Origin: Planctomycetota bacterium
GTDB taxonomy: Bacteria > Planctomycetota > Phycisphaerae > SM23-33
Direction: 5' to 3'
DNA: 64,000 bases
Assembly: GCA_030635145.1 (NCBI GenBank)
Contig: DAOVZK010000002.1
Location: 21,119-85,118 of the forward strand
Shown piece after piece: positions 12,687 through 31,869 of this stretch. The translations under genes and the position numbers were made by a program. The first letter of the stretch is position 1; each line of letters opens with the position of its first letter. The notes under the pieces are model-generated. The model saw only the letters and a list, made by a program, of their open reading frames with translations, searched no databases and was not told the origin of the DNA.

Positions 12687-12787
12687 CAAAAATGGGTTGT
12701 ATTCGTAATGATTGGAAAAGGACGTAATTTTGTGCGAACTATTTGCAATGTGGAGTGTCCAAGGGAGGAGTTAAACGAATAATTCCA

Positions 12788-15700
12788 GTGAAACAGATCA
12801 ACAAAGGACAATTTCGTAACCGCCTGGGGTTTACTCTGGGATTTTTTACCATTGCTGCGATAGTTCTGCAGTATGCGGGTTCTGCTGCGCTGGGCGCCCC
12901 TGTAAAAATCTCGCGATCCGGAAAATCTACAACCAACGGCCCGGCGGCGTTGGTACGGTGCGACTACGAACTATGCGATTTTCTCAAGAAGGCCCAAAAG
13001 CACATCACCAAAAAGGAATATCCCCAAGCCGTCAAAATTCTCCAGGCCCTGATCGAAAAACCAGACTCCGGATTCGCACCCCGTAAAGATGGAAACAACC
13101 AGCGATTCGTCTCCCTGCGATCCGAGGCCGTCCGATTACTCGGAACAATTCCGCCCGAGCACCTCGAAGGTTACCGCCGCCTCTACGACTCCAAGGCCCG
13201 CAGCAAATTCAAAAAAGCCCTGCAAACCGGAAACATCCCCGCACTGAAGCAAGTCGCCGAAATCTACGCTCTTACAAGCGTCGGGCCGATAGCTATCGAG
13301 CGGCTTGGCGAGATGGAATTCGACCGTGGGGGGTTCACCCAGTCAGCTGCATACTGGATGCAACTCTTGGAAATTACCAGCGGCACCGAAAAACCCCCGC
13401 TGTTGCTGCTGAAAATCGCAGTCGCCAGCCATCTCGCCGGGCTTGACTCCCAAAGTAAAACCTTCGCCGACAAACTCCGCAAAAATCATCCCGACGCCAC
13501 AGCTGTTCTCGGTGGGCGACAGCAGAAGCTTGTGGAGTTTCTCGATGCGATGTTGAAAATTCCGGCCAAGTCGGCCTCGACAGTACCCTCCCTCAGCAAT
13601 TCGTATCCCGGTTGGGGCGGCATTCCTAACGGGTTGGGCACGATGAATGACTGCAGCGTGTTGATGCTGCCAAAGTGGAAATACCCCGCGGGGCAACCCA
13701 AGGGGAAAAACATCTACAACAAGCTCATTCCGCAGTTTGGGTTATCATCTCTCGACAGCAGTGGTTACCACGGGCGTGGAGATTCAAACGACATGCGGGC
13801 CGAGCTGATTGGCGGGAATATCCTCCTCGGGTTCGGTAAAAAACGTGTCAGCAGGAAAAAATCAATAATTCTTCCCGCGATTCTCAAACCCGTATTAGTT
13901 GACGACGCCATCATTTACCGTGATGACAATCGCGTGGTTGCACTGGACATCTTCACCGGGGAGTTGCAGTGGAAGTCGCCCAAACTGCCAATGGAAGCAA
14001 CCATCGAAGGCGACTCGAATAACTACTATTATTACGGGGGAAACTTCACGGAAACGGGTCGGTATGCATTAACTGCAGGCGGGGGTAAGGTTTTTACCAT
14101 CTACGGATTCGCTCCGCAGGTTTTTTCTCACAACCGCGGACAGAAAATCGAGAATTCGTCATCGCTGGCGGCCGTCTCGACGAAAGCTCAGGGCAAGCTG
14201 CTTTGGCAGATCGGACGAGGCGGACCTAAGGGCAACGAGCTTGCGGGGTTTACCTTCGTGTCTTTACCCAGATATGTCGCAGCTGGCAAAAACAACGACG
14301 AGAAGCTGTATACAGTCGCGGCAAACTCCGAGGCCTTCTACCTGATCGCACTGAACGCGAATACGGGTAAGGTTATATGGAAAACCGTCATCTCGCAAAT
14401 ACCCGTAAATTCGGGTGGGCATTTCCGCGGCCCGTGGGGCAGAGGCGGCCAGCAAACGTTCGCCGGAACCCCGCCGGTTTACCACGACAACCAAGTGCTG
14501 GTCGCCACTAACGCCGGAATCATCGCAGCTGTCGACGCTGCCACCGGACAACCAGTATGGGCATACCAATACGAAAAAAAATCTCCAAACATTCGGCGCC
14601 ATGGAGGCCGAAATCGCTCCACTTCCATCCATTCGCAGTTAAACCCGCTGATCGTAACGCATGGACAGGTCATCGCGCTCCCAGCTGACCATTCTGACGT
14701 GATATCCCTGTCAGTCATCGACGGTTCACCAATCTGGAAAGCACCCAGCGTAGGAATGTCGCAGCTGACCGCCATCGATGCCGGCCGCATTTGCCTCAGC
14801 GGAAAAAAACTCAAAATTCTCAACGCCAAAGACGGAAAAGAACTTTTTAAAAGCGACACCATCAAAAGCCCCGCGGCGCATCCTCTTGTAACGCCCACGC
14901 AAATCATCACCTGCGGGGAAGGGACGCTGACGAGTGTCTCGCTGAAAGATTATAGCACTGCGGTGATGGGCACGGTCGAGGGCGACGGTTTACTGGGAAC
15001 GCTGATAAGCACGGGGCAAACACTGATCGCGGCAAACGCGTCGGGTGTTTGCGGGTATTTCGGTTTCGACAGCGGATTCGCCGAACTCTCCAAACGCATG
15101 AAAAACGCCACGCCTCTCGAACAAATCAAACTGCTGATGCAGCGAGCATCACTTTGCGATTCAGCAAAAATGCACGACAAAGCTTTGGGCAACCTGCTTG
15201 AGGCGCAAAAACTCATCGCAACCATTCCCGATGAAGAGCCAAAGGAAAAACTCGACGCGAAACTGCTCCGCCGATTGATGAACGCGTATATCAGCAACGC
15301 CAACCGCGCCGCGGGACCAAACGCCGTGGAAGAAATGCTGGAGAATTTCAAAACCGCAGAAAAATTTGCCGCCACCCCCGAAGAAAAAGCAACCATGCAG
15401 CTGCGAATAGCAAAGTACTACGAGTGGATCGGCAATCTCGAAAAATCAATCGATGCGGCGAATCTGTTGATTAAAAATTATCCGACCGTTAAGGTTGCAG
15501 ATGTACCTATCGGGCAGAAGGGGGTGGGATTTCGCGCGGCGTCGGGAATATCCAAAACCGGGGAACAAATGGGCAATGCATTTATCGAGAGGTTGCTGCA
15601 GATTCACGGGCAGGAAATTTATACGACCTTCAACGAGCAGGCGAAAAAGGCGATGGACGCAGCGGCGGCGGAAAAAGACATCGCTGCCCTCGAAGCCGTC

Positions 15701-17434: not shown

Positions 17435-17438
17435 AACC

Positions 17439-18611
17439 ATGAAACAAATTGACATATCGAGATGTCTGTGCGGAGGTATTACCGTTGCGGTCGCAGCTGC
17501 GATTGTGCTGTACAGTTTACCACTGAACTACGTCTCAGCTGCCCCCACGACGATTCTCCCAAACATGGTCACTAAGAAAACCGACCAGCAGATCGAGCGC
17601 GGGTTGAAATATCTCGTGCGAACCCAGCGGCACGACGGTAGTTGGCTAAACGCGGGGGGGTACGGGTCGTATCCTGTCGTGATGACATCGTTGGCAGGGC
17701 TGGCGTTGATGGCTGGTGGGTCTACGCCCGAATCCGGACCCTACTCCAAAAACGTCGCCCGCGCACTGAACTACATTCTAAACGCCGCCGAAGGTTACGC
17801 CCAAAAAAAACCCACCAAGGACGAACAAATTCTAATCAACGCCGGTTCTTCCGGCGGGGGCGGACGCAGCATGTACGGGCACGGTTTCGGAATGCTGTTT
17901 CTCGCACAGTGCTACGGTATGGAGGGCGACAAATCCACAGATCGGAGCAAACGCCTCAAGCGAATCCTCGACGGTGCCGTCCGACTCACCGCCGCCGCGC
18001 AGTCCGACCTGGGCGCCGCTGTCAAGCACGCCGGGGGTTGGACATACTCTCCCAACGCCAAAAGCGACGAAGGATCGGTTACAGTAACGCAGCTGCAAGC
18101 TCTGCGGGCGTGTAGAAACGTCGGAATTAAAGTTCCAAAGCAGACCATCGACCGTGCGGTTTTGTACCTCAAGGCCTGCCAGCAAGACGACGGAGGCATC
18201 GCATATCAGTACAGCCGCCGCAGAGGTGGCTATAGCAGAAGCCAATCCGCCATCTCAGCCGCCGCGATTGCGTGTTTCTACTCGGCAGGGATCTACGACC
18301 GAAGAACCGGCGGGGCAGGGGCCGAAGCGAAAATGGTCGAACGCCTCGTGGACTACTGCAAAGCGAACATCACCCCCGACTCGCATAACGGGCACTACTT
18401 CTACACGCATCTTTACATGTCGCAGGGAATGTATCAACGCGGCGGGAAAGACTGGAAAAACTATTACCCCGATATTCGCGACAGGTTTCTGGAAATGCAA
18501 AGTCCCGACGGCAGCTGGAACGGCGACGGCATCGGGCCGGTATACGGCACTGCTATCGCCACGATAATTCTTCAGCTGCCCTACGGATACTTACCCATAA
18601 TGCAACGATAA
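17439..18611 (+). CDS. secreted prenyltransferase/squalene-oxidase-repeat (alpha/alpha toroid) protein
   Basis: Signal peptide. Repeated QxxDGSW/DGG motifs typical of terpenoid-cyclase/prenyltransferase alpha-alpha barrels (QRHDGSWLNAGGYGSYP, QQDDGGIAYQY, QSPDGSWNGDG). It starts 4 nt after the giant gene. Confidence 0.7.
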   Translation: MKQIDISRCLCGGITVAVAAAIVLYSLPLNYVSAAPTTILPNMVTKKTDQQIERGLKYLVRTQRHDGSWLNAGGYGSYPVVMTSLAGLALMAGGSTPESGPYSKNVARALNYILNAAEGYAQKKPTKDEQILINAGSSGGGGRSMYGHGFGMLFLAQCYGMEGDKSTDRSKRLKRILDGAVRLTAAAQSDLGAAVKHAGGWTYSPNAKSDEGSVTVTQLQALRACRNVGIKVPKQTIDRAVLYLKACQQDDGGIAYQYSRRRGGYSRSQSAISAAAIACFYSAGIYDRRTGGAGAEAKMVERLVDYCKANITPDSHNGHYFYTHLYMSQGMYQRGGKDWKNYYPDIRDRFLEMQSPDGSWNGDGIGPVYGTAIATIILQLPYGYLPIMQR

Positions 18612-18737: not shown

Positions 18738-19853
18738 GTGACATATCCCATAGACAACAGTAAATTACCCGCCGATCAGTCCACAACCACCGACGCCTCG
18801 CAGCAACCCAGCGGTGGCGACATCGCGGCCGTCGAAAAACTCACAGACGCCTACAAGAAAATTCGCGACGAAATGTCTCGGGTTATTGTCGGGCAAGACG
18901 CAGTCGTCGAACAGCTGCTGACTTGCGTGTTTGCTCGCGGGCATGCGATTTTGGAAGGTGTACCGGGATTGGCGAAAACGCTTATGGTTTCGTCGCTGGC
19001 GAAGTGCCTCGATCTGGGATTCTCGCGAATTCAGTTTACTCCCGACCTCATGCCGTCGGACATCACCGGCACCGAAGTCATCCAGGAAGACAAGTCCACC
19101 GGGCATCGCGAATTCAAATTCTTAAAAGGCCCGATCTTCCAGAACATCATCCTCGCCGACGAAATTAACCGCACGCCCCCGAAAACGCAGGCTGCACTTT
19201 TAGAGGCCATGCAGGAACGCCAAGTTTCCGTCGGTGGTAAGCAGCTGCCGATGAGCGATCCGTTCTTCGTACTGGCGACGCAAAACCCGATCGAGCAGGA
19301 AGGAACCTATCCCTTACCCGAGGCACAGCAGGACAGGTTCATGTACAAGATTTTCGTTTCGTATCCAAACTGGGACGACGAATTCGAGGTCATCCGCCAA
19401 ACAACCACGACCGAGCAAACGCAGCTGAAACCCGTGCTCGACGGTGAGACGATTCTCCAGGCCCAGCACACGATCCGCCGCGTACCCGTAGCCGACAGCG
19501 TTATCCAGTACGCCATGCGACTTGTGCGTGCGACGCGAATAAATGAATCCGACGGGCAAGGCGTACCAGAAATCGTGCGCGAGTACATCAGCTGGGGTGC
19601 AGGCCCGCGGGCGTGCCAATATCTCATACTCGGTGGAAAAGTCCGCGCGGTTCTTAACGGCCGCTTCCATGTCAGCACCGACGACATCGCCGCCGTCGCC
19701 AAACCCGTGCTGCGGCACCGCATCGTCACAAACTTCAATGCCGACGCAGAAGGCTTCGACCCCGACAAAATCATCGCCGCCCTGCTGGAATCCATCCCCG
19801 CACACGAAAGCAACATCGCGACAAATCCGCGAACGTCGAAGGCAGTGGAGTAG
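18738..19853 (+). CDS. MoxR-family AAA+ ATPase
   Basis: Walker A GVPGLAKT, Walker B ILADEINR, ~320-aa core, GTG start with an AGGAGA RBS. Confidence 0.9.
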
Positions 19854-19922
19854 TTACGGGTGAAAAGTGATACAAGATAGCACAATGGTTAGTTATAGAT
19901 TGGCTTAAAGGCTGGTGTCATT

Positions 19923-21275
19923 ATGAAAAAGAGTTATTTGATTTGTATAACGAGCATGTTTTTATTGGCTTCAATGGCTTGTGGCGAGGAAATAAAACTC
20001 ACATATGAGCTAGTCAAAACGGTAGAAAAAGGGTACCTTCAAGGCAGCCCTCCACTACCAAAAAAAACTGAAAAATCAATAACCGTTGGCTTGAATAAAA
20101 ATGCCTTATTCCTGAAAACAAACGAGACCAAAACGATTTTTGATTTTACACAAAAACGCATAACAAGATTACGATTGAAAGAGAAACGCTATGAATCTGT
20201 TCCGCTTATTTCTATCGTAGACTTCAACGTTTGTGAACTTACAAATTGCATGGCAATGAAAAAAGCAGTGGCTGCTTTTGGTTTAGAACCAGGTAAGATG
20301 TTGGACAGTCAATTTAATATGGAAAATGTTTTTTGTGTTGAGTCTCCCAATAAGGAAATTAGGGACGAGGTGGGGAAAGTAAAAAAAGTTCAAAAGGGCA
20401 AAGAAATCCTGTTTGAGTATGACGGAAAAACAATTGTCAAATTTGTGCCGTCCAGTCATTCGGTACCCAAGGACTTTAGAGCATCTTTTAGACGAATGCT
20501 GATCTATGTAATGCCCATGCACCCTCAAATAAGACATGAAATCCAACAGATTAACGTATTTCCAGAAACATTGTATGTTCGGGCCTCGCATGGAACGATA
20601 ATTGTTTCAGAATGGAAATTAAAATCCTTCTCCAAACATAATGAAAACAGTTGCGTAATACCTAAAACATTTACGCCATACATTGACAAAGACGATTCTC
20701 TAAGAAGCGTTTTGCTGATGTCTAAAAACACAAAACCTCAGAGTAAAATGCAGGTCGTGCAACTTGTGGATGAGTTTGTTGAAGATAAACAATATCTTGA
20801 CGCGATTTTAGCTATTATAGAATACGGCTTCTATGCAGACGATTTTTCTCGCGAAAAATATTCTGCTGTTTTTAAGCAAACAGAGAATGATGAACACGTC
20901 AGGCAACTCATGCAATATGTTTCGCTTTGTTCAAAAAACAAACCTTCTCCACAAGCCGCCATTAAAATTTTAGATAAACTTCGAAAGCACAAGTTGAAGA
21001 AGGGATATGTTCTCGATATATGGAAAGCGAATTGGTTGACCGACTTAAAGAAATCTGAGCAGGCCAAGCAAATATTTTTAAGTGTTCTTAAAAAAAACCC
21101 GCATTTGGTAGGAGTATATCATGATTTGGGGAATTTATATCGAAGACAATATGATATGCCGTCAGCATGGCTGTGTTGGGATATGGCTTTGCAAATCACC
21201 CCAAACCATTCGATGCTTTTTCGAATCAAAATGCTAAAAAAGAAATTGGCCGAAAATTTTCCAGACTTTTTCTAA
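19923..21275 (+). CDS. low-GC hypothetical lipoprotein with a TPR-like C-terminus, inserted between moxR and DUF58
   Basis: GC ~35% against ~58% in both neighbours. Signal peptide plus Cys (LLASMAC). The C-terminus GVYHDLGNLYRRQYDMPSAWLCWDMALQITPNHSMLF is TPR-like. No other domain recognised. Confidence 0.65.
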   Translation: MKKSYLICITSMFLLASMACGEEIKLTYELVKTVEKGYLQGSPPLPKKTEKSITVGLNKNALFLKTNETKTIFDFTQKRITRLRLKEKRYESVPLISIVDFNVCELTNCMAMKKAVAAFGLEPGKMLDSQFNMENVFCVESPNKEIRDEVGKVKKVQKGKEILFEYDGKTIVKFVPSSHSVPKDFRASFRRMLIYVMPMHPQIRHEIQQINVFPETLYVRASHGTIIVSEWKLKSFSKHNENSCVIPKTFTPYIDKDDSLRSVLLMSKNTKPQSKMQVVQLVDEFVEDKQYLDAILAIIEYGFYADDFSREKYSAVFKQTENDEHVRQLMQYVSLCSKNKPSPQAAIKILDKLRKHKLKKGYVLDIWKANWLTDLKKSEQAKQIFLSVLKKNPHLVGVYHDLGNLYRRQYDMPSAWLCWDMALQITPNHSMLFRIKMLKKKLAENFPDFF

Positions 21276-21301
21276 CAACAAACTATTAGTCAAACATAAA
21301 T

Positions 21302-22252
21302 ATGCCAAAAACAAAAAACGAACTGCTGGAATTTCTCGACCCGAAAGTCTTAAGCAAGATTTCGCGTTTGGATCTTCGCGCGCGATCCGTGGTAGAAGGA
21401 TTCGTCAGCGGAATGCATCGCAGCCCGTTTAATGGGTTCTCCGTCGAATTTGCCGCCCACCGCGAGTACGTTCCCGGTGATGACATCAAACACATCGACT
21501 GGAAAGTTCAGGCCCGCACCGACCGCTTCTACATAAAGCAGTACGAGGAAGAAACCAACCTCAAGGCAACGTTTTTGCTGGACGCATCGGAATCGATGCA
21601 CTACCCGGCGAAAAAACCGGGGCTTCCCAAGGCTGGGCGACTGACGAAATACGAATACGCCGCCACTACAGCGGCAAGCTTGGCGTTTATGCTGCAACAA
21701 CAGCAGGACAGCGTGGGGCTTGGGATTTTCGACGAGGATTTGAAAACATACCTACCGGCCGCTGGGCATATGTCGCAAATAAAAGCGATGGTACACGCTA
21801 TGAGCATCACCGAAGCCAAGGGTAAAACCTCGCTCGAAGATATCTGCCACACCGTCGCCGAAAAAATCTCACGCCGCGGATTAGTCTGCATCATCAGCGA
21901 CTTATTCGTCGACATCGACGGACTAATGCGAGCTTTGGAACATTTCCGCCACTACGAACACGAAGTGCTGGTCATGCACATCATGGACAGTGACGAACTG
22001 GAGTTCGACTTTCAGGGCACGACGCAATTTCGCGGGCTTGAGGCGATGGGCAACCTCACGGTTCAGCCTCGCGCGCTACGCGACGCATACCTGCGGGAAG
22101 TCGAAGAATTTCACCACCAACTCCGCAGCAAATGCGCAGCTGGACGGATCGACTACAAACTAATTTCGACCGGCGACCACCTCGACGCAGCCTTGTGTTC
22201 ATTCTTAGCAGCCAGGGCGGCGGCGGTTCGCAAAGCCTCAGCGAAACGATAA
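21302..22252 (+). CDS. DUF58 protein (MoxR-associated vWA-like)
   Basis: GMHRSPFNGFSVEFAAHREYVPGDDIKHIDWKVQARTDRFYIKQY is the DUF58 signature segment. Confidence 0.85.
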   Translation: MPKTKNELLEFLDPKVLSKISRLDLRARSVVEGFVSGMHRSPFNGFSVEFAAHREYVPGDDIKHIDWKVQARTDRFYIKQYEEETNLKATFLLDASESMHYPAKKPGLPKAGRLTKYEYAATTAASLAFMLQQQQDSVGLGIFDEDLKTYLPAAGHMSQIKAMVHAMSITEAKGKTSLEDICHTVAEKISRRGLVCIISDLFVDIDGLMRALEHFRHYEHEVLVMHIMDSDELEFDFQGTTQFRGLEAMGNLTVQPRALRDAYLREVEEFHHQLRSKCAAGRIDYKLISTGDHLDAALCSFLAARAAAVRKASAKR

Positions 22253-22341: not shown

Positions 22342-24648
22342 ATGCCATTTTTGCATCCTTTAATATTTTGGATGGGCCTCGGGGCCGTCTCGATCCCGAT
22401 TATCATCTACATACTCAATCGCCGGCGATTCAAGATGATCGACTGGGCAGCGATGAGGTTTCTGCTCGACGCGCTTCGCAAAAATCGGCGACGCCTGCGA
22501 TTAGAAGAACTCATCCTGCTGCTGATCCGCTGCTTGATCGTTATGCTGCTGGGGTTGGGGTTGTCGCGATTTATCGGATGCGGGGACGACGACTCGCTCG
22601 GAAACGGCAACGGTGGGCGGTCGGTTGTGTTCGTGCTGGACGACAGCATTTCCATGGGCCAAAAACGTGGTGGTAGCGCAACAGCCTTCACCCTCGCCAG
22701 AAAAGACCTCGCCGACCGCATCGCAAAACTTTCCAGCAAAGACCACGCCGCCATCATCCTGACGTCTCGCCCGTCGGCGGGCGATGCGTTTTTACGGATG
22801 GGTCCCGTCGGTGACCCGCAAGGCCTGGCCAGCAGAATTAAAACTCTCGAACCTCGCGACACCCGCACGCATCTTGCAGAAGCGATGGCCGCAGCAAACG
22901 AGCTGCTCCGCGACACTGACGGAAAAAAGCATTTGTATATCCTGAGCGACTTCCGAAAAATCGACATTACCGGCGCAGCTGCGACGGGGCCGCTGCAAAA
23001 AGCGTTCGCCAATTTAGGAAACAGCAGCGTAAAAACGCTCGTGATGAATTTCGGCTTGGATTCCAAGCGAAACCTTACTGTAGAGTCGCTTGAACTAAAC
23101 GGAAAGTTCGCGACGGCTCGGGGAGAATCGCGAATTACCGTCAGTGTTCGCAACAACGGTTCGATGCGCGTGGAAAACGTACCCGTGAGCATTTGGGTTT
23201 CACTGCCAAACGGCGAAAAGCTTCGCAACGTCAAACTCCCAGAGATGACGATAAAGTCTCTCGATCCCGAAAAAATATGGAAGAAGGACATCTTCTTCAC
23301 GCCCGAAAAACCGGGCTTCGCCGTCATCAACGCCACCCTCCCAGCCGACGATTTACCGGGCGACAATTCCGGTTGGTTGTCGCTGGACGTGCAAAAAGCA
23401 ACGAAGGTGCTGCTCGTCGACGGGCACCCGAATATGGAGATCCCGGAAGAATCCGAGTCGTATTTCTTGCGGTTAGCGTTAGACCCGACCGGCCGGGCCG
23501 ATCACGGATACGATGTGGAAGTAATCAAACGCAACGACCTACCGGCCACGCGGTTTGAGAATTACGACGCGGTGTTTTTGCTGAACGTATCGGGTTTTCC
23601 GCTCGACCCGCAACCCGTGATAACGCCCGACAAAAAAGAAACCATCGAAAATTATCCGTCGCTGCTGGGGCTTGAGCAATACGTCTCCGCCGGTGGTGGG
23701 TTGGTGATTTTCACGGGCGACAGAATTGACACGAATTTTTATAACGGCCGACTGTTTAAGAAAGGTCGCGGGCTAAACCCCTTGCCGCTACGGGCCAAAG
23801 TCGGCGACCCGGAAAATCGTGACGTATACTTCGAGTTCGCCCCCGGAAGCATTCGCCCCGACGGTGTGATGCAGTTTTTCTCCGGCGAGGCATCGGTACT
23901 TGTTAAGCTGATTCGCTTTTTCGCATTCAACCCCGCCGACGTCAGCGGAAAGGTGCTGTCAGGCAGCGGCGACGAAATCGCATCGCCGATAATCGAAGCA
24001 ACGTACAACGATCCGAATTCGAGCCCCGCGGTTATCTCGCGGCGATTCGGAAAAGGCAGAGTCGTGATGTTCACCACAACATCCTCGCTCGACTGGAACG
24101 ACTGGGCGATGGACTCTGTCGATCAGGTGCGTGGTTTGTACGTGCTGTACATGGCCGAACTCGTCGATCGCGTGGCACGCAAAAAGGCCAACGCCTTCAC
24201 CGCCGACGTCGAACAAAGCATCACCTACCCAATCTCCGACGACCTCCGCGACACAAAGGTAACAATTCGCAACACGGAAACCGGCAGCGACATAACCACG
24301 CTTGTTCCGCAGGCAGGCCCCGCGGGCCAGCAGGTAACGCACAACAAAATTCTCGACGCCGGAATATATCGACTGATTTTCAGGTCGCCCGACTCGTCCA
24401 CAAGCGAGAAACTCTTCGCCCGAAATCCCGACGGGCTAGAAGGCCTACTGGACGTCGGCGACAAGAAAAATATCTCAGCCGCCCTTGGCAGCAGCGATTA
24501 CTCGTACATTGACAGATCGAAAATCCAGGCCGGTAGCAAACGTGACCGGCTTGGCGACAAGCAGTATTGGGTGTGGATCATTATTGGGCTTTGCGTTTTG
24601 CTGGGCGTGGAAACTTTCCTGGCACAACGCTTCGGGCATTGGAAATAG
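22342..24648 (+). CDS. BatA-like protein: N-terminal double-TM anchor (aerotolerance-regulator N-terminal domain) plus vWA plus large extension, C-terminal TM
   Basis: MPFLHPLIFWMGLGAVSIPIIIYILNRRRFKMIDWAAMRFLL...RRRLRLEELILLLIRCLIVMLLGLGLSRF matches the BatA double-TM domain, then VVFVLDDSISMG (vWA MIDAS-like). The C-terminus YWVWIIIGLCVLLGV is a TM helix. Confidence 0.8.
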   Translation: MPFLHPLIFWMGLGAVSIPIIIYILNRRRFKMIDWAAMRFLLDALRKNRRRLRLEELILLLIRCLIVMLLGLGLSRFIGCGDDDSLGNGNGGRSVVFVLDDSISMGQKRGGSATAFTLARKDLADRIAKLSSKDHAAIILTSRPSAGDAFLRMGPVGDPQGLASRIKTLEPRDTRTHLAEAMAAANELLRDTDGKKHLYILSDFRKIDITGAAATGPLQKAFANLGNSSVKTLVMNFGLDSKRNLTVESLELNGKFATARGESRITVSVRNNGSMRVENVPVSIWVSLPNGEKLRNVKLPEMTIKSLDPEKIWKKDIFFTPEKPGFAVINATLPADDLPGDNSGWLSLDVQKATKVLLVDGHPNMEIPEESESYFLRLALDPTGRADHGYDVEVIKRNDLPATRFENYDAVFLLNVSGFPLDPQPVITPDKKETIENYPSLLGLEQYVSAGGGLVIFTGDRIDTNFYNGRLFKKGRGLNPLPLRAKVGDPENRDVYFEFAPGSIRPDGVMQFFSGEASVLVKLIRFFAFNPADVSGKVLSGSGDEIASPIIEATYNDPNSSPAVISRRFGKGRVVMFTTTSSLDWNDWAMDSVDQVRGLYVLYMAELVDRVARKKANAFTADVEQSITYPISDDLRDTKVTIRNTETGSDITTLVPQAGPAGQQVTHNKILDAGIYRLIFRSPDSSTSEKLFARNPDGLEGLLDVGDKKNISAALGSSDYSYIDRSKIQAGSKRDRLGDKQYWVWIIIGLCVLLGVETFLAQRFGHWK

Positions 24649-24666: not shown

Positions 24667-27342
24667 ATGGGTAGCATACTGGAATGGATTTTGAATCTCC
24701 CCTCGGGCAAGCTGGGTGGTGGTGATTGGCGGTTCGCGCTGACGTCGGAGCTCGGCAACTACGTCAAGCTCAGTCTGTTCGCAGCGGCCGTCGGGCTTAT
24801 CTGGTTAACCGTGCATTGCTACCGCCGCGAAGGCCTCGGTTCGCGCCGCACGAAAATCGTCCTCGCCGCCATTCGCATCACCGTAATTCTGCTGGTGCTC
24901 GGAATCCTGCTGCAACCGGCCGTCGTCCTGAAAATTTCGCAAACGCTCTACAGCACCGTGCTGGTAATTACCGACAACTCCCGCTCGATGTCCTTTAAAG
25001 ACCGCTACGCCTCGCCGGAAGAATCGGCCAATCGCGCCGCGCTTTGCAAATCGCTTGACGTCTCGCCGCAACAGCTCGCAGAAATGTCGCGATTGGATAT
25101 CATCAGGGCACAGCTGCAAAAATCGGGTTCGGTGCTGGGCGGGCTTAGCGAAGATCACCCGATCGAGATCATTTCGTTTTCGACCAACGCCCCGGACAAA
25201 GACCCGTACACCAGCGTGATCGATTCACTCGCTCGCGGTTCGGTCGCAAAAAACACCGACGACGCCAATGTACAAAAAACCCTCGCCTTGCTGCAGGGTA
25301 ACGGTTACGAAACAAACCTCGCGGCGGCGATTCGCGATTCGCTCGATCGTTTTCAAGGCAGGCGGTTGGGGGGAATCGTGATTCTTAGCGACGGGCAACC
25401 CGCCGGCAACGCCGCCGACCCCGACGAACGCCTCGCAGCTGCCATCGAATACGCCAAGCAGCGATCCGTTCCGCGATACGCCGTGCTGGTCGGGGATCCA
25501 ACCCCACCGCGAAACCTCAGCGTTTTGGCGCTGCGTACGCCGCGCGAAATTCGCACAAAAGTTCGCACCACCTTCACCGTCATGCTTGGGCATCGCAATA
25601 TGGAAAACAAAACGGTCGACGTCCGCATTTATCGGCGCAAGGCTGAGGAGCGTTGGCCGACCGATTTCGCAAAGCGAAAACCAATCGCGTCGCAAACCGT
25701 TAAACTCATCGACCCCAAAACCCAGGCCCCCGGAGACTCGCCCGGTGTGCAATCGGTGAAAATCAACCTCAAACCCACGAAGGACGACCTTGGGGAATAC
25801 GTCTACCGCGCGATGGTCGTAAAGCAAGACGACGAGCGAACCGGCGAAGACAACCACGCCGACGCGGTCGTGAAATTAACCGACAACAAGATTCGTATCC
25901 TGCTGGTCAGCGGTGACGCCGGGTGGGAATTCCAGTACATTCGCAACTATTTTCTGCGGCAGCCCGACCTGTACCGCCTGAGCGTCTGGCAGCAAAATGC
26001 CGACGCGGAAATCAACCAGTCCGCCTCTACGGGAATGAAACTCACGCGGCTGCCAAAGTCGCTCAAGGAACTCATCGACACCAGCAAAGACGGCGACGAG
26101 TCCACCACTCGGCCGACAACAAAACCTACCGCAACCACCAAACCGTCATCCACATCAAAACCCACAACCACCAGTGTAACCGGCAAAGATGAAACCATCC
26201 CGCCCGGTTACGATGTGGTTATCCTCTACGACCCAAGCCCCACGAAGGACGGGTTCGACAAAAACTTCATCAAGCTGCTGCACGAATACGTTACCGTTCA
26301 TCGCGGTGGGCTTTGCTACATTGCCTCCAACAAGCACACGTTCGACGTGCTGCGCGACCCCGCCGCCAAGGGGCTTTCCGACCTGCTGCCGGTTGTCGTC
26401 GCACGAAACGACATCGACGTGGCACGCATAATTCGTGAAAGCCAACCGAAGGGATGGCCGGTAAAACTCACCAGCTACGGATACAACCATCCGCTGACAT
26501 CGCTCGGGGGTTCCGACGACCGCAACAAGCGAATCTGGTCGCTATTACCGGGGATCTACTGGTCGCATGCCGTGGCCCGAAAAAAACCGCTCGCCCGCGT
26601 GCTGGTTGAGCATTCGGACCCGAACAAAAAAATGAAGTCGCAGCACGGAAGCGTTCCGTTGGTTGCGGTGCACTCGGCGGGGTCGGGGAGGGTTGCGTAT
26701 GTGGGTTTTGACGAAACGTGGCGGTGGCGGTTCGTGGACGACGGATTTTATCATCGCCGGTTCTGGGGGAACATGGCGCGATATTTGGCACCGTCGAGTC
26801 CGCGGCAGGTAATCATCGCGACGGGCGGGGATAAGTTCTCGGCCGGTGCGCGAATCCCCGTCGAAATCGAAGCCTACGATCGCGACTACCGACCGCTGGA
26901 CGATAAGACTTTCACGATAGTGATGATCGACACGAAAACTGGCAAGAAAACGCAGCACATCGCCAAAAACGTCGCCGGCAAGCCCGGCCGCTACAAAACG
27001 TCCATCCTCGCGGCCCACACCGGATCGTACACGATTACCTGCGACAAAAAAATCGCCGACAGCAAACGCGTAGCCTCTAAGCAGATCGAAATTACGCTAC
27101 CGCAGGCAGAGTCGAAACGCACCGAGGCAAACGAGCGAACGATGCAAACCATCGCATCGAAAAAAACTCACTATCTACCCGTAAGCAAAATCGATCAGCT
27201 CGCAGAGCTTATCCCGGCCGGTCGGCTGCAAACGGTCGAAGACGAAAAATACACCCTCTGGGATACCAGCACAATGCTGTGGATAATTATCGCACTGCTG
27301 AGTATCGAATGGTTCCTGCGTAAAAGAAAGAACATGGCGTGA
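24667..27342 (+). CDS. double-TM-anchored vWA-like protein (BatB-like) with a Pro/Thr-rich linker and a C-terminal TM
   Basis: N-terminal TM hairpin, VLVITDNSRSM vWA-like start, the linker TTRPTTKPTATTKPSSTSKPTTTS (26101-26170), C-terminal MLWIIIALLSIEWFLRKRK. Confidence 0.7.
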   Translation: MGSILEWILNLPSGKLGGGDWRFALTSELGNYVKLSLFAAAVGLIWLTVHCYRREGLGSRRTKIVLAAIRITVILLVLGILLQPAVVLKISQTLYSTVLVITDNSRSMSFKDRYASPEESANRAALCKSLDVSPQQLAEMSRLDIIRAQLQKSGSVLGGLSEDHPIEIISFSTNAPDKDPYTSVIDSLARGSVAKNTDDANVQKTLALLQGNGYETNLAAAIRDSLDRFQGRRLGGIVILSDGQPAGNAADPDERLAAAIEYAKQRSVPRYAVLVGDPTPPRNLSVLALRTPREIRTKVRTTFTVMLGHRNMENKTVDVRIYRRKAEERWPTDFAKRKPIASQTVKLIDPKTQAPGDSPGVQSVKINLKPTKDDLGEYVYRAMVVKQDDERTGEDNHADAVVKLTDNKIRILLVSGDAGWEFQYIRNYFLRQPDLYRLSVWQQNADAEINQSASTGMKLTRLPKSLKELIDTSKDGDESTTRPTTKPTATTKPSSTSKPTTTSVTGKDETIPPGYDVVILYDPSPTKDGFDKNFIKLLHEYVTVHRGGLCYIASNKHTFDVLRDPAAKGLSDLLPVVVARNDIDVARIIRESQPKGWPVKLTSYGYNHPLTSLGGSDDRNKRIWSLLPGIYWSHAVARKKPLARVLVEHSDPNKKMKSQHGSVPLVAVHSAGSGRVAYVGFDETWRWRFVDDGFYHRRFWGNMARYLAPSSPRQVIIATGGDKFSAGARIPVEIEAYDRDYRPLDDKTFTIVMIDTKTGKKTQHIAKNVAGKPGRYKTSILAAHTGSYTITCDKKIADSKRVASKQIEITLPQAESKRTEANERTMQTIASKKTHYLPVSKIDQLAELIPAGRLQTVEDEKYTLWDTSTMLWIIIALLSIEWFLRKRKNMA

Positions 27343-29639
27343 GTGATCAATTGTTACAATCCTGTGTACTGGGAAAATTGCGGTCGCTGCGAATGCTACT
27401 GCGCGGGCGACTGCTGCTCGAGGGAGTTGGATGGTTTGTCCTGGGGATTATCGCCTTGATACTCGTGACGCTGGCGTTCGACTACACGCTGCATCTCAAC
27501 CGCGAACAACGAATCATGATCACCGCCTTGTGCTGCGTGGGAATTCTTGTGATTGTTTGGAAAACGCTCCTCGCCCCGCAAACCGTTGCCATGAAAAACT
27601 CCGACCTTGCCCTGCTCGTCGAGCGGCATTACGGACAGCTGGACGACAGACTTATCAGTACACTGGAGCTAACCGACCGAGAAATGATCATCGCCTGCGG
27701 GGCAAGCGAAGAAATGGTCGCCCAGATGTCGCGCGAGGCGAACGACATTGCATCGCAGCTGAAATTTTCAAAGATCGTGGAAATGCGGCGAATGGGAAAA
27801 GTGTGGATTCTCACGGGAATTGCACTGCTGATGATGGGAAGTTTCACGGTTCTTAAAAGCGATGTCATGTCGCTATGGTTTCAGCGAAACGTACTCATGT
27901 CCAATATCGATTGGCCGCAAGACACGTACCTGTGCGTGTACTACGTTAACTACGACGGGCAGCTGGCACCGCTGATGGAAGTGGCACCCGACGGAACCAT
28001 CACCAATACCGTCGACAAATTCGACGTGCTGCGCGGTGAGGACATGAAAATCGTCACCATTACCACGGACGGGAGTGAAACGCCCGATCAGGTAAAGCTG
28101 CACGCGTGGTACCCTTCGGTGGGTGATACCGAAGGATTGGCGGGCAAACTTTCGGGTCAACAGGCTACGAAATATCTTGCGAAGCTTCCGGGCCAGAGTT
28201 CTCGCGGAGTATACGTGCAGAAAATTTCTGGCGTGTCGGAGGAGTTTCGATTTTACGTTACCGGCGGCGACGACAAACGCGATAAACGTAATCCTCACAA
28301 CGTCTGCCTCGTCGATCCACCAGCCGTCAAGCAAATACTGTTTCCCGTGGAATTCCCCGCGTACATGCGAAAAACACAATCCGAACCCGTCGACGGATCG
28401 CGCGGTGTGCTTTCCATTCCGCTGGGGTCAACCGTATACATTCAGGCAATGGTGAACAAAGACCTGATGTCCGGCGAGCTGATCGTAAATGAAAAATCGG
28501 CGAGCAAGCTCGAAATACTCAACGATTCCAAAAACCGCCCGCGCGAGTTGCGAGGGTCGTTCACCGTAGACGGAAAAAACGTACCACGCAGCGACACGCT
28601 GAGATTCACCCTCAAAGACACCAGCGGATATTCCAATCGCCGCGGAGAGCAAATTATTCTGCAGGTTATCCCCGACGCTGCACCGAGCATAAAGCTACAA
28701 TTTCGCGGAGTGCGAAATGTCATTTGCCCGACGGCAATGATTCCGCTGATCGTATCCGGGAAGGATGACAACGGCATTGAGCGGATTGATGTTTCTTACA
28801 TCTGCACACCCCCGGAAAAAGAATCCGCCGACGCACCGGCCTCGCCAACCCGTCGGGCCCTTGAGCCGATCTTAAGCGGGCCTGAAATCAAAAAGCAGTT
28901 GGTTGCAAATCGCACGCTGGACATTCAGCCGCTGAAGCTCATCCCCGGTTCGAAGGTGCGAGTAAAAGCCCGCGGGCTTGATCTGCTACCGAAAAATCTG
29001 CAGGGCCCGAATGCGGCAGATTCCAACGAACTGACGTTTAGTGTGATTACGACCGAAGAGCTTCTCGCTCAGCTCGTGGGCAAGCAGAAAGAAGTTCAGC
29101 TGGAATTCTTCATGGCGATGGGGCAGCAGGCGCTTTCGCAAGGCCGATGCGATGCCGTCAGCAAACAGCTGGCCAGCGGTAAGATCGGCCCCACCGTTCC
29201 ACAGCGTCTCACCGACGCCATCGGCCGACAACTTGCCGTCACGAACGAATCAATCAAAGCCGCCGACACCCTCCACGCCGTCGCCGACGAAATGGAATTC
29301 AACCGCATAGGAAAACCGCAAGACCATCAGGCGATACGCACGAATATCGTGCTACCGTTGCGGCATCTGGTGACCCAAATGCGTGAAGTGTTGCAGCAAC
29401 TCCAAGCTGCCAGCAAAATAAATGACCCCGCGCAGCTGCGGGAAAAACTCGAGAAAATTGTCGCAGAGCAAACTGTGATTTATGAGGAAATGGAAAAAAT
29501 TCTCAAGCATATGCGAAAGCTGGAGAATCGGTTGGAGATAGCACGGCGGTTAGAACAAATTTTGATAATGTCACGCGAACTTGAGGAGATTCTCAGGCAA
29601 CGGGCAGACGAAAGTACATCCGAAACGTTTGAAGACTAA
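27339..29639 (+). CDS. double-TM-anchored large extracytoplasmic protein (third consecutive double-TM protein of the cluster)
   Basis: GTG start overlapping the previous stop (GTGA). N-terminal hairpin FVLGIIALILVTLAFDY...IMITALCCVGILVIVW and a helical C-terminal region. Confidence 0.65.
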   Translation: MSDQLLQSCVLGKLRSLRMLLRGRLLLEGVGWFVLGIIALILVTLAFDYTLHLNREQRIMITALCCVGILVIVWKTLLAPQTVAMKNSDLALLVERHYGQLDDRLISTLELTDREMIIACGASEEMVAQMSREANDIASQLKFSKIVEMRRMGKVWILTGIALLMMGSFTVLKSDVMSLWFQRNVLMSNIDWPQDTYLCVYYVNYDGQLAPLMEVAPDGTITNTVDKFDVLRGEDMKIVTITTDGSETPDQVKLHAWYPSVGDTEGLAGKLSGQQATKYLAKLPGQSSRGVYVQKISGVSEEFRFYVTGGDDKRDKRNPHNVCLVDPPAVKQILFPVEFPAYMRKTQSEPVDGSRGVLSIPLGSTVYIQAMVNKDLMSGELIVNEKSASKLEILNDSKNRPRELRGSFTVDGKNVPRSDTLRFTLKDTSGYSNRRGEQIILQVIPDAAPSIKLQFRGVRNVICPTAMIPLIVSGKDDNGIERIDVSYICTPPEKESADAPASPTRRALEPILSGPEIKKQLVANRTLDIQPLKLIPGSKVRVKARGLDLLPKNLQGPNAADSNELTFSVITTEELLAQLVGKQKEVQLEFFMAMGQQALSQGRCDAVSKQLASGKIGPTVPQRLTDAIGRQLAVTNESIKAADTLHAVADEMEFNRIGKPQDHQAIRTNIVLPLRHLVTQMREVLQQLQAASKINDPAQLREKLEKIVAEQTVIYEEMEKILKHMRKLENRLEIARRLEQILIMSRELEEILRQRADESTSETFED

Positions 29640-29667
29640 ACTAAAAAGTTTGCAACAGGAAATTAAA

Positions 29668-31869
29668 ATGATCGACAAAACGAAATCAAAATCACGATTG
29701 CTTATTCTAGTTGTGTGCGCGTTGGGAATTCTTGCGGGCCCTGCGGTGCTTCATGCGCAGGACTCCACCCCCAAGGACAAAGAAAGCAAAGATCTGGTGC
29801 ACTCGGCGGCGTTTATAAAGAAGAGGCTTAACGAGCTTTTAGTGGCGATGTCGGATGTGGCGACGCTGCTGGAAAAAACTGAGCCTGAGGTGGCGAAAAT
29901 TTTGCGTCGGGCGGTGGATTATGCTCAGTCCGAGGACGTTTCCGATAAGCTGGAAGACGTGATTAATGCGTTGCGGGGCGGGTTAGACGAGGCTGCCCAA
30001 GTCAGCCACAGTGAAGTTATCGCCGACCTTACTACCATGCTTCGAATCATCGAGGGCGGAGTAAATGAAGATTCCGATATGGACAAACGTATCGCCGAGT
30101 TGCGGGCGGTGCGTAATCGGCTCGACAAGACAATCAAAAAGCAAACCGTCGAGGAAAAGAAAACACGCCCCGCCGCCAACGAAAAAGATATCGACGACCA
30201 AACGAAAAAGCTCATCGAATATCTGGAAAATATCGTCAAACAGCAGCAGGAACTGATGGGCAAAACCGGCAAACTCAAACCCGCCACCCCGGATGTTAAA
30301 AATCTTAGCGAACTTCGTAATACCATTCGCGAGCTTATCAAGCAGCAGGAAAAAATCAGCAAGGCCTCCGACACCTCTGCCCTGGCGAAGATTCCGGTTC
30401 TCGGTGAGGCTCAGGCGAAACTGTCGAAAAAAACCCAAGCCGCCATCAAGGCCATCAAAAAATCGAACATCGATCCCAAAACTCGCGACAAAACCGCAGC
30501 ATTCACCAAAGACGCCGCAGACGAAATGACCCACGCCGCCAAGTCGCTAAGTGAGTCGAACCCCAACTCTGCATCGCCGTCGCAAAAGCGAGCGATGGAG
30601 CGACTAAAGGCAGCCGAGAAAAAACTCTCCGAGGCGATAGCGAAAAAAACCGCGGGGCAGCCCAGCAGCGAACTTTCGCAGAAACAGGGCAAGCTCGCCG
30701 AGCAGACGGATGGGCTTAAGGACGAGTTAAAAAATATCGCCGACAAGGCGGGCATGGAAACGAAGAAAACCGGCGATCTCGGCAAGGCTGCCAAGTGTAT
30801 GAAAAAGGCTGAAGATAAACTCTCGTCGCAAGAATCATCTCCCGCGGTAAAGCAGCAGGAGATGGCGTTAAAAGAGTTGAAACGTGCCGTCGACGACGCC
30901 AAAAAACTTCGCCGGCTGGCTGCCGAAAAAGCGAAAACGAAAGTACCCGCCGAGCCGCAAAACGAAATCGCCGAAGAAACCAAAAAACTCGCCGAAGATA
31001 TGAAAAACACCGAATCCAAAAAGCCAATGGCTGGGCAGCCTTCGGTTTCCAAGGCAAGCAAATCAGCGGGGGCGGCGGGGAAGAAACTTTCCAGCGGTAA
31101 GTGCGGCGGGGCAAACAGCGACCAGAAAAAAACCATCGAAGAGCTGAAAAAAGCTATGTCACAACTCGACGAAGAAATCGAAGAGCTTGAACGTCTTTCA
31201 AAAATGGAAAAACTCGCCAGCATTGAAGAACAGCTGGAGAAAGTTCTCACTGACCAGAAGGAATGTACGCAAAAAACGCAGCGGGTGTATACGCTTCGTG
31301 CGAAAACAAAACCGCACTATAACCGCCAAGCCACCCAGACGATTTTGGAAGTTTCCAAACAGGAGAATTCGCTCAGCAAAGACGTTGGTGCGATCCGCCG
31401 CCTGCTTGTTAAGGAAGGAACAACGGTGGTTTTCCCCGAAGTTCTCGACGACATCGTCAAGGATATGCAGAGCGTTTCCAAACGTCTGGAGGCGACAGAT
31501 CCGGGTAAGTTGACGCAGGCGATGCAAAAGGATATCGAAGAAACGATTCAGGAGCTGCTCGACGCCGTCCGTAAGGAGTTGTCGAAAGGACCCGGGCGGA
31601 AGAAAGGCGGAGGAGCATGCAAGGGTGGCGGCAAATCTCCCCTCGTTCCCCCGCTGGCGGAGTTGCGTATGCTGCGTTTGAAAATGAAGCGGGTTAATCG
31701 GGGAACGAAACGGCTTGAGAAAATGAAAACGAGCAAGATGATAACCGAACCCGAGGCTAAAATCCAACACGCCAAGCTCGCCGAACGTCACAAAAAAGTT
31801 CTAGAGCTGGCAGGAAAAATCAAAAGCAAACTTGACAGCTCCCAGCCAAAACTGAAAAATCAGGAGTAA
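29668..31869 (+). CDS. secreted 733-aa K/E/A-rich coiled-coil protein
   Basis: ATG with an AGGAAA RBS. Signal peptide LLILVVCALGILAGPAVLHAQ. The rest is almost entirely charged heptad-like sequence. The ORF-track start at 29581 overlaps the upstream gene and is rejected. Confidence 0.7.
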   Translation: MIDKTKSKSRLLILVVCALGILAGPAVLHAQDSTPKDKESKDLVHSAAFIKKRLNELLVAMSDVATLLEKTEPEVAKILRRAVDYAQSEDVSDKLEDVINALRGGLDEAAQVSHSEVIADLTTMLRIIEGGVNEDSDMDKRIAELRAVRNRLDKTIKKQTVEEKKTRPAANEKDIDDQTKKLIEYLENIVKQQQELMGKTGKLKPATPDVKNLSELRNTIRELIKQQEKISKASDTSALAKIPVLGEAQAKLSKKTQAAIKAIKKSNIDPKTRDKTAAFTKDAADEMTHAAKSLSESNPNSASPSQKRAMERLKAAEKKLSEAIAKKTAGQPSSELSQKQGKLAEQTDGLKDELKNIADKAGMETKKTGDLGKAAKCMKKAEDKLSSQESSPAVKQQEMALKELKRAVDDAKKLRRLAAEKAKTKVPAEPQNEIAEETKKLAEDMKNTESKKPMAGQPSVSKASKSAGAAGKKLSSGKCGGANSDQKKTIEELKKAMSQLDEEIEELERLSKMEKLASIEEQLEKVLTDQKECTQKTQRVYTLRAKTKPHYNRQATQTILEVSKQENSLSKDVGAIRRLLVKEGTTVVFPEVLDDIVKDMQSVSKRLEATDPGKLTQAMQKDIEETIQELLDAVRKELSKGPGRKKGGGACKGGGKSPLVPPLAELRMLRLKMKRVNRGTKRLEKMKTSKMITEPEAKIQHAKLAERHKKVLELAGKIKSKLDSSQPKLKNQE

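Follow-up and report, generated by a model that had tools for sequence, protein, structure and literature searches.

A low-GC gene between moxR and DUF58 in a Bat-type operon

The stretch of DNA analysed here (64,000 nt, referred to below as the window; overall GC 0.5175) carries a Phycisphaerae operon of the Bat type, in which genes for MoxR, DUF58 and a BatA-N plus VWA protein follow each other in the canonical order (Table 1). The order of the remaining Bat-like operon genes (24667..31869) recurs in the MAG contig JAGLOU010000034.1. An open reading frame encoding 450 aa, with an ATG start, lies between moxR and DUF58 on the + strand, at positions 19923-21275. This gene, hereafter ORF450, shares the strand of the operon and is separated from its neighbours by spacers of 69 bp (5′ side) and 26 bp (3′ side). 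A first-pass annotation of the window had placed a gene on the same strand between moxR and DUF58; its coordinates proved exact, and Pfam confirmed the identity of both neighbours. The C-terminus of MoxR aligns with those of relatives through the stop codon and the N-terminus of DUF58 aligns from residue 1, showing that both genes are intact and have kept their native ends. Scans for simple consensus sequences, a method possibly ill-suited to Planctomycetota, predicted no + strand terminator between moxR and DUF58.

Table 1. Features of the operon, of ORF450 and of its flanks (window coordinates).
Feature	Position	Strand	Evidence and remarks
PQQ-type beta-propeller / TPR protein, 1563 aa	12743..17434	+	Pfam PQQ_2 7e-27, TPR_6; native GC.521
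Prenyltransferase / squalene-cyclase-like repeat protein, 390 aa, signal peptide	17439..18611	+	SQHop_cyclase_C 2.5e-10; GC.565
moxR, AAA+ ATPase, 371 aa	18738..19853	+	Pfam AAA_3 2.2e-63, AAA_lid_2; GC.568, GC3.688
Left spacer	19854..19922	none	69 bp, AT-rich; left edge of the low-GC insert
ORF450, predicted signal peptide (residues 1-19) and Cys20	19923..19982	+	Lipobox regular expression; hydrophobic N-terminus, KD 2.23
ORF450, N-terminal beta-rich domain (residues ~21-240)	19983..20642	+	Open beta-sheet with helices; AF2 pLDDT mostly >90
ORF450, C-terminal TPR-like helical repeat domain (residues ~256-445)	20688..21257	+	AF2 paired helices 259-445
Segment in common with contig L171	20898..21271	+	blastn 92.2% over 374 bp; match stops with the final codon of ORF450
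ORF450, C-terminal motif FPDFF and stop codon	21258..21275	+	Family consensus [FYH]P[DE][FY]F
Right spacer	21276..21301	none	26 bp, AT-rich; right edge of the insert, abuts the DUF58 start codon
DUF58 (vWA-like), 316 aa	21302..22252	+	Pfam DUF58 1.6e-43; GC.538
BatA-N and VWA membrane protein, 768 aa, next operon gene	22342..24648	+	BatA 1.2e-14, VWA_2 1.4e-8
Remaining Bat-like operon: 891-aa and 766-aa proteins (no Pfam match), 762-aa DUF4175 protein	24667..31869	+	

The exact GC content of ORF450 is 0.366 (GC1.432, GC2.299, GC3 about.367), and the moxR-DUF58 spacer is low in GC over its entire 1,448 bp (.364), whereas the neighbouring genes have a GC of.54-.57 and a GC3 of.64-.69. The earlier estimate of about 35% against about 58% was therefore close for the gene (36.6%) and slightly high for moxR and DUF58 (56.8% and 53.8%, respectively). 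The same holds at the level of codons: in a set of 40 long ORFs from the window, ORF450 ranks third for deviant codon usage and its GC3 is 3.8 standard deviations lower than the average of the remaining ORFs (.622 +/-.068; z = -3.8), with only one other gene, at 53802-54518, equally low in GC3. Amino-acid usage is skewed as well, with 12.2% Lys against a mean of 7.1% in the protein family described below, and 4.4% Ala against 9.1%. The composition of ORF450 is thus foreign to its host, all three codon positions and amino-acid usage being strongly atypical. That GC1 and GC2 are depressed along with GC3, and that Lys and Ala are skewed, points to a long stay of the gene in an AT-rich genome. The 69-bp left spacer presumably came along with ORF450 as its own 5′ region.

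ORF450 is a real coding sequence under selective constraint: comparison with a 92%-identical copy in the metagenome contig L171 gives a dN/dS of 0.23. In L171 the common segment has a GC of.35 within flanks of.50-.58, and sits between a thymidine kinase gene, whose nearest named relative belongs to a Gammaproteobacteria MAG (77%), and an AMP-binding gene. This contig may be a chimera since it is only 1.9 kb long, with 1.5x coverage. We have therefore set it aside as a second insertion site, and used it only for the dN/dS estimate and to show that a close variant of ORF450 exists elsewhere.

ORF450 belongs to a widespread family of predicted exported proteins

When 5.8 billion proteins were searched with a word-indexed method, ORF450 gave a single match and a 55-sequence profile gave two, suggesting that the gene was an orphan. 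This view was overturned by an exhaustive HMMER profile search of 1.84 billion representatives, which produced 4159 matches with a cut-off of E<=1e-3 and 346 with one of E<=1e-30, most of them over the full length. In an alignment with 54 members of the family, ORF450 shows 22-31% identity, the nearest full-length homologue reaching only ~31%, and retains P201, P393, D401 and W416, which are invariant in the family; F450 is nearly invariant in the same alignment. One member of the family is named and comes from an Oculatellaceae cyanobacterium MAG. Judging from their sequences, these are widespread, unnamed proteins of ~450 aa that are predicted to be secreted, with a signal peptide, a beta-rich N-domain, TPR and a terminal [FYH]P[DE][FY]F motif.

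The search for homologues and their contexts that had been proposed at the outset yielded eight independent family loci (L001, L165, L166, L168/L173, L170, L172, L174 and L175). MoxR, DUF58 or VWA genes were found in none of these eight, and no neighbours are common to them. The GC content of the family gene was within about 3 points of that of its own contig at all five loci measured. Family members elsewhere span 41% to 61% GC, tracking their hosts, which indicates that a low GC is no inherent trait of these genes.

The N-terminus of ORF450, MKKSYLICITSMFLLASMAC, satisfies a PROSITE-style lipobox pattern. When written as a regular expression, the PS51257-style pattern fits MKKSYLICITSMFLLASMA followed by C, with the invariant Cys at +1. 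The motif itself, LASMA followed by Cys, is only lipobox-like; SPase I cleavage after SMA is equally compatible with it, of the 152 full-length members of the family, just 12 have such a motif and most have plain signal peptides, and the AF2 model leaves only three residues between Cys20 and its first beta-strand. The first-pass description of ORF450 as a signal-peptide/Cys lipoprotein thus stands as far as the lipobox pattern is concerned, and lipidation at Cys20 is plausible but unproven.

The structure of ORF450 was predicted with AF2. A run from a 2-sequence alignment was unusable (pLDDT 43.6) and was replaced by a run from a 55-sequence alignment (pLDDT 93.4, pTM.90). Foldseek matched the N-domain of this model to LolA structures 4ki3, 8cgm and 7z6w (E 3e-4 to 8e-4, TM(target).41-.48), the best PDB matches being LolA of Yersinia, Porphyromonas, E. 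coli, Francisella and Pseudomonas (E 3e-4 to 7e-3). The superposition is weak (TM.41-.48, rmsd about 10-13 Å, identity 8-12%), and searches of Pfam and the PDB with ORF450, family members and the family profile found no sequence-level match for this domain. The C-domain was matched by Foldseek to MamA, OGT-TPR and PilF. The family profile matches PDB consensus TPR structures with E=1.8e-29 over positions ~346-454, and a single Pfam TPR model matches up to 9 of 55 family members. For the ORF450 sequence taken alone, Pfam TPR stays below threshold; nothing else in Pfam or NCBIfam reaches threshold either, NCBIfam giving weak generic TPR matches (PrsT, LapB) far under their cut-offs. The TPR-like C-terminus proposed from the first reading is nevertheless clear at the family level, and the AF2 model shows the corresponding helical repeats.

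The moxR-DUF58 junction in related genomes

We fetched 160 loci around DUF58 homologues, about 130 of which contain a moxR-DUF58 junction. No homologue of ORF450 was detected by tblastn in the 160 loci. Across the ~70 related Phycisphaerae/Planctomycetota junctions, those of the other five members of its subclade among them, the gene is missing throughout. Presence of the low-GC gene in relatives had been set beforehand as a possible refutation of a foreign origin, and the relatives do not carry it. The closest relatives compared show 72-79% protein identity, and scans of genomes and metagenomes peak at 72-76% for DUF58. The spacers of the two nearest, L005 and L007, measure 3 and 76 bp, and those of unoccupied sister genomes 3-76 bp.

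The moxR-DUF58 junction is usually taken as an invariant gene pair, and the first-pass annotation described the two genes as almost always adjacent, obligate partners. This is true of distant relatives but not of the present clade, where the genes lie at least 300 bp apart in 24 of 58 unique loci (38-41% of loci). Gaps of 800 bp or more are present at 17 of 71 moxR-DUF58 junctions, as against 3 of 66 DUF58-BatA junctions (Fisher p=.0014) and 0 of 54 prenyl-moxR junctions. In this clade, no other junction of the operon tolerates insertions as well as moxR-DUF58, which is a recurrent landing site for extra genes.

The occupants of this slot belong to at least ten unrelated families, all lie on the + strand, co-oriented with the operon, and nearly all encode exported proteins. 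Besides C25 peptidases, present at five loci spread over the tree, they include ankyrin, LRR, HEAT, DUF1287 and SecDF-P1-head proteins and small lipoproteins; transposases, PIN toxins and Uma2-like genes are found as well. According to a crude predictor, a signal peptide, lipobox or TM segment is present at the N-terminus in all ten non-transposase families, the roughly estimated background among genes of the window being 42-50% (binomial p about 3e-4 to 1e-3, for events that are not phylogenetically independent). Decayed remnants of occupants were seen in L112, L026 and L106, and the slot is free of any occupant in 59-62% of clade loci and in almost all distant relatives.

Within the subclade of the window, the slot is filled by Y1_Tnp genes (IS200-like, of the REP-associated tyrosine transposase or RAYT type) with flanking REP hairpins in three of the five closest relatives (L010, L011 and L012), which singles out the spacer as a site targeted by mobile or repetitive DNA. 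In L010, the transposase has a TM-protein gene of low GC next to it. The window differs from these genomes in that neither a Y1_Tnp gene nor REP-like hairpins were found at the junction or elsewhere in it, and we put forward a RAYT/REP-mediated origin of ORF450 only as a hypothesis. The search for target site duplications, inverted repeats and direct repeats around ORF450 revealed only short repeats of chance level. There is no tRNA, Rfam feature or ncRNA near the insert and no integrase flanking it, and ORF450 has no match in phage, plasmid and viral collections.

Origin of ORF450

We consider it likely that ORF450 was acquired horizontally from an unsampled low-GC donor, by insertion into a tolerant spacer, and that it is probably read through with the operon. 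The idea that a foreign gene had entered without disrupting the operon was already present in the first-pass annotation, and is supported by the atypical composition, the ~70 empty junctions, the homologues of native GC that are not linked to MoxR, the intact ends of both neighbours and the lack of a predicted + strand terminator. A low-GC cassette of ~1.45 kb, comprising ORF450 with 69 bp on its 5′ side and 26 bp on its 3′ side, would have come from a donor of roughly 35% GC and entered the short moxR-DUF58 spacer. Transcription from moxR would then continue through ORF450 into DUF58 and preserve the function of the operon; such read-through is suggested by the co-orientation of ORF450, its position only 26 bp ahead of DUF58 and the absence of a predicted terminator. 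The transfer may be recent, as the GC3 of ORF450 shows no amelioration, the relatives compared (72-79% protein identity) setting no bound on its age. No donor genome was identified and the closest homologue is only ~31% identical, so that a long-diverged resident gene is formally possible. The product would be exported to the periplasm, possibly lipid-anchored at Cys20, where the open beta-domain would bind a hydrophobic ligand or a lipoprotein and the TPR domain a partner protein. Its activity would not depend on MoxR.

Functional recruitment into the MoxR system, the second possibility raised in the first-pass annotation, appears unlikely and finds no direct support. The slot would be an accessory site for exported proteins co-expressed with MoxR, DUF58 and VWA proteins as their clients or adaptors, and ORF450, although foreign in origin, would now be an envelope component of the system, like the TPR proteins BatC and BatE of classical Bat operons. 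The export or membrane signals of all ten non-transposase families fit this proposal, as do the orientation that every occupant shares with the operon, the C25 peptidases recurring over the tree, the purifying selection on ORF450 and the protein-interaction repeats of several occupants (Ank, LRR and HEAT, with TPR in the window). The GC of most occupants other than ORF450 matches that of the host, which suggests long residence. Classical Bat operons contain TPR envelope proteins, and SH3 envelope proteins have also been reported in Bat-type operons (PMC5700661). However, the occupants are mutually unrelated, patchy and in part decayed, suggesting turnover rather than a conserved role, and most clade loci do without any. 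Some occupants, moreover, are transposases, PIN toxins or Uma2-like genes. The co-orientation of every occupant would equally be expected of neutral insertions that avoid polarity, and the export bias comes from a crude predictor applied to phylogenetically non-independent events. Finally, the family is near MoxR at none of its eight other loci and ORF450 has no positional orthologue in the 160 loci fetched; neither result favours a dedicated component of the MoxR-DUF58/VWA system. The broader view that the spacer is a swappable cargo slot, whose unrelated exported proteins would be co-transcribed and served by MoxR, DUF58 and VWA proteins as clients or adaptors, is in our opinion doubtful.

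Three further explanations were rejected. ORF450 could be an ancestral, conserved component of the MoxR operon of this lineage, with a low GC imposed, for example, by constraints on protein composition. It is indeed intact, confidently folded and constrained, and bears no signature of mobility, but its absence from every related junction, those of its own subclade included, and the host-like GC of its family elsewhere make this very improbable. An assembly or binning artefact, in which a chimeric join would have set a low-GC fragment of another organism between Phycisphaerae genes, had to be considered because the window derives from a metagenome-assembled genome and because the sole near-identical sequence, the possibly chimeric L171, is flanked by gammaproteobacterial-looking genes. 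It is highly unlikely as well: the same arrangement is present in GCA_023138805.1 and in the Logan assembly of SRR13892605, and two precise breakpoints would be needed to place one complete gene exactly in the spacer between intact neighbours in register. That ORF450 is no gene but a reading frame that arose by chance in an AT-rich spacer, as the lack of Pfam or NCBIfam matches at threshold and the single match of the word-indexed search could have suggested, has a negligible probability in view of the 346 family representatives, the well-folded model, the dN/dS value and the rarity of 450-codon frames in stop-rich, AT-rich DNA.

Comparison with known systems

ORF450 resembles a genomic islet in its deviant composition, limited to one gene and short flanks, and in its patchy spread, being absent from relatives and having homologues in unrelated genomes, where their composition is native. 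The same junction, moreover, holds other cargo in related genomes, including transposases. In contrast to islets, ORF450 has no integrase, tRNA or direct repeats, neither a mobility signature nor a donor was identified, and the gene lies within an operon, flanked by two functionally coupled genes, and not at its edge.

The host operon is of the Bat type, but ORF450 precedes DUF58 instead of following downstream among the Bat genes. Unlike Bat proteins, it receives no NCBIfam or Pfam Bat assignment and carries an additional beta-rich N-domain. LolA gives the best, though weak, structural matches to the N-domain of ORF450, which is predicted to be exported as LolA is; ORF450 differs from carriers of the LolA/LolB type in being fused to TPR, in its size (about 2.5 times that of LolA), and in having no sequence relation to these proteins and no lol genes in its context. 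The C-domain matches the structures of both PilF and MamA, and the N-terminal signal recalls PilF-type pilotins. However, genes for a secretin, a pilus or a magnetosome are lacking around ORF450, and PilF and MamA possess neither the [FYH]P[DE][FY]F motif nor the N-domain.

Implications

Taken as a single event, the arrival of ORF450 is a routine, fairly ordinary horizontal acquisition that carries little weight by itself. It exposes an unannotated family of hundreds of clusters, almost wholly missed by word-indexed search, with an N-domain for which Pfam has no model. It also draws attention to the moxR-DUF58 junction as a gene-turnover hotspot within a single clade of Phycisphaerae, strongly favouring co-oriented genes for exported proteins. 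To our knowledge, the substrates of MoxR/VWA systems are largely unknown. If the export bias reflects function, the occupants of the slot are candidate clients or adaptors of these systems; and if the reading of the spacer as a cargo slot is true, they would form a natural catalogue of MoxR substrates, which has so far been missing for MoxR chaperones.

A low-GC gene between moxR and DUF58

The low-GC gene reported between moxR and DUF58 by the first-pass annotation is borne out by exact GC values (see table). In a set of 40 long window ORFs that do not overlap, the GC3 of this gene, here ORF450, lies 3.8 SD under that of the others, and the whole moxR-DUF58 spacer (1,448 bp, including 69-bp and 26-bp non-coding flanks) has 36.4% GC. 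A BatA-N/VWA gene and then more large genes follow DUF58 on the same strand. The GC shift affects all codon positions as well as amino-acid composition, with 12.2% Lys and 4.4% Ala in ORF450 versus family means of 7.1% and 9.1%. Low GC is not intrinsic to the ORF450 family, since family genes in five other loci stay within about 3 points of their own contig over a range of 41–61%; the gap is 18 points in the window. Such a composition would suit a gene that evolved for a long time in an AT-rich genome before being transferred recently.

Two other low-GC stretches occur in the window, one just upstream of the large operon and the other, probably another foreign or mobile islet, farther downstream. 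MoxR itself weakly matches Pfam bpMoxR (1.8e-9), the model for MoxR-vWA-beta-propeller ternary systems, an architecture to which the window operon may belong.

Features of the window and of compared loci
Feature	Coordinates	Strand	GC	Remarks
Whole window			0.5175	
Low-GC stretch	11100-12700		minimum.377	just upstream of the large operon
DUF2089 zinc-ribbon/HTH protein	11716-12123	+		within the 11100-12700 stretch
137-aa ORF	12127-12540	+		unannotated; within the 11100-12700 stretch
1563-aa PQQ beta-propeller/TPR protein and 390-aa prenyltransferase/squalene-cyclase-like secreted protein	12743-18611			immediately 5' of moxR
moxR (MoxR AAA+ ATPase)	18738-19853		0.568; GC3.688	Pfam AAA_3 2.2e-63, AAA_lid_2
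ORF450	19923-21275	+	0.366; GC1.432, GC2.299, GC3.366	ATG start, 450 aa
DUF58 gene	21302-22252		0.538; GC3.640	Pfam DUF58 1.6e-43
Second low-GC island	52800-55300		1-kb GC down to.39	
238-aa ORF	53802-54518	+	GC3.353	no real Pfam match
GIY-YIG nuclease-domain protein, 191 aa	54676-55251	-	GC3.48	
IS200-like Y1 transposase genes in slot	L010:5255-6916, L011:6195-6967, L012:6170-7000			Pfam Y1_Tnp 7e-25
Fragment matching ORF450	L171:1083-1456		.35	374 bp; metagenome ERZ24794553

ORF450 belongs to a large secreted family

ORF450 has no Pfam or NCBIfam match at threshold, and a word-indexed search of 5.8 billion proteins returned a single homologue, P0001 (30% identity). When these two sequences were made into a profile and searched exhaustively with HMMER, 4159 representatives passed E≤1e-3 and 346 passed E≤1e-30, mostly full length (440–490 aa). 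The indexed search had found only one or two members of a family with 346 representatives at the stricter threshold; 'orphan' calls from indexed search alone are unreliable for divergent, compositionally biased proteins. ORF450 is 22–31% identical to 54 aligned members, in which P201, P393, D401 and W416 are invariant, the C-terminal F450 is nearly so and the C-terminus reads [FYH]P[DE][FY]F. ORF450 is a real gene of a large unnamed family.

The AF2 model computed on the family alignment (pLDDT 93.4, pTM 0.90) begins with a signal helix, followed by a beta-rich, helix-containing domain (~21–240) and a helical repeat domain (~256–445). In Foldseek searches of the PDB, the N-domain weakly matches LolA lipoprotein carriers (E 3e-4, TM to target.41–.48) and the C-domain matches TPR proteins such as MamA, OGT and PilF. 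Consensus TPR structures (1.8e-29) are all that the family profile matches in the PDB. The product had been described as a lipoprotein, and its N-terminus does fit the lipobox pattern; since only 12 of 152 members carry this pattern and SPase I could cleave here just as well, secretion is a firm prediction and lipid anchoring a tentative one.

Part of the gene (20898-21271, 374 bp) is 92% identical to metagenome contig L171 with a dN/dS of 0.23, which indicates a constrained coding gene. The L171 fragment corresponds to the 3' third of ORF450, begins mid-gene and stops at its last codon. It is flanked on one side by a thymidine kinase gene, whose nearest named relative (77%) comes from a Gammaproteobacteria MAG, and on the other by the 3' end of an AMP-binding enzyme gene on the opposite strand. 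Either it is the scar of a recombination event in an unrelated host, or the contig, covered at 1.5x, is chimeric.

The moxR-DUF58 junction is a hotspot

DUF58 homologues in GTDB species genomes and in JGI metagenomes served to collect 160 loci; the closest relatives in these collections are Phycisphaerae MAGs with 72–76% (DUF58) and 77–79% (MoxR) protein identity, none of the same genus. No ORF450 homologue was found in these loci. In eight independent genomic contexts where family members do occur, MoxR, DUF58 and VWA genes are absent and no neighbours are shared; one member lies downstream of gap-pgk-tpiA and another adjoins an M28 peptidase gene.

Distant relatives, whose DUF58 is below 56% identical, have moxR and DUF58 either overlapping or separated by less than 100 bp; now and then a PIN, Uma2-like or unknown small gene is inserted. 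In the closer clade, 24 of 58 unique loci have a slot of 300 bp or more, so that the obligate adjacency assumed by the first-pass annotation is overstated there. Clade occupants are all encoded on the same strand as the operon and come from families that are unrelated to one another: Peptidase_C25 (five loci), an unknown TM family (several loci, plus decayed remnants), a DUF1287 lipoprotein, a SecDF_P1_head secreted protein, an ankyrin lipoprotein, three unrelated small lipoproteins, a 255-aa TM protein and IS200-like Y1 transposases. Gaps of at least 800 bp occur at 17 of 71 moxR-DUF58 junctions, against 3 of 66 DUF58-BatA controls (Fisher p=.0014) and none of 54 upstream of moxR. Gaps of 300–966 bp are present at the DUF58-BatA junction in 14 of 66 clade loci.

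The secreted Peptidase_C25 (gingipain-family) genes (L034, L091, L093, L096/L097, L113), one fused to HEAT repeats, are scattered over the clade tree with empty-slot genomes between them, implying either an old occupant that was lost repeatedly or a gene that was gained several times. The TM family is intact in L015, L030 and L104; in L112, L026, L102 and L106, 312–481 bp gaps hold tblastn-detectable remnants with short tandem repeats (translation 'RIADCGL...') that look like decaying occupants.

In an NJ tree of MoxR and DUF58, the window clusters with L012, L005, L011, L007 and L010. Three of these neighbours have in the slot a Y1 transposase with GC-rich hairpin arrays on both sides (e.g. 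GCCCCGAAGGGGCG, AGCCGGGGGCG...CCCCCGG), of RAYT/REP type, and in L010 a low-GC 255-aa TM-protein gene adjoins the transposase; the other two have empty slots with 3-bp and 76-bp spacers. Against these relatives, the window MoxR aligns through its last residue and the window DUF58 from its first, hence the insertion is cleanly intergenic. No repeats, tRNA or REP elements were found at its boundaries.

Origin and possible role of ORF450

The proposal of a foreign gene inserted without disrupting the operon is supported by composition, absence from relatives and intact native flanking-gene ends. Most likely, a low-GC cassette of about 1.45 kb was acquired horizontally and retained in a spacer that would tolerate co-oriented insertions because they are non-polar for DUF58 and the genes after it. 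The DUF58 start lies only 26 bp beyond the ORF450 stop, and no + strand terminator-like site is predicted from the end of moxR to DUF58, from which we infer read-through. The search for a donor gave none (the best full-length relative is ~31% identical), and phage, plasmid and viral collections gave no match for a vector.

Functional recruitment of ORF450 into the MoxR system is a less likely alternative. TPR envelope proteins are part of classical Bat operons (PMC5700661), MoxR is thought to chaperone VWA partners (PMC3557215), several occupants are repeat-type interaction modules, and all 10 non-transposase occupant families carry an N-terminal signal peptide, lipobox or TM segment, against 42–50% of window genes when hydrophobicity is scored in the same crude way (binomial p 3e-4 to 1e-3). 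However, occupants are unrelated, patchy and in some cases decaying, most loci have none, the slot also receives transposases and toxins, and ORF450 relatives are never MoxR-linked. An ancestral component (the gene is missing from every compared locus), a spurious ORF (the coding sequence is constrained) and an assembly artefact are each highly improbable.

Once exported, the product could bind a hydrophobic ligand or acyl chain in its open beta-domain and a partner protein through its TPR, as its weak structural similarity to two fold classes may suggest. The horizontally acquired cassette is a single-gene islet at an intergenic hotspot, an already known class; the variable slot seen across the clade and the uncharacterised protein family add somewhat to its significance.
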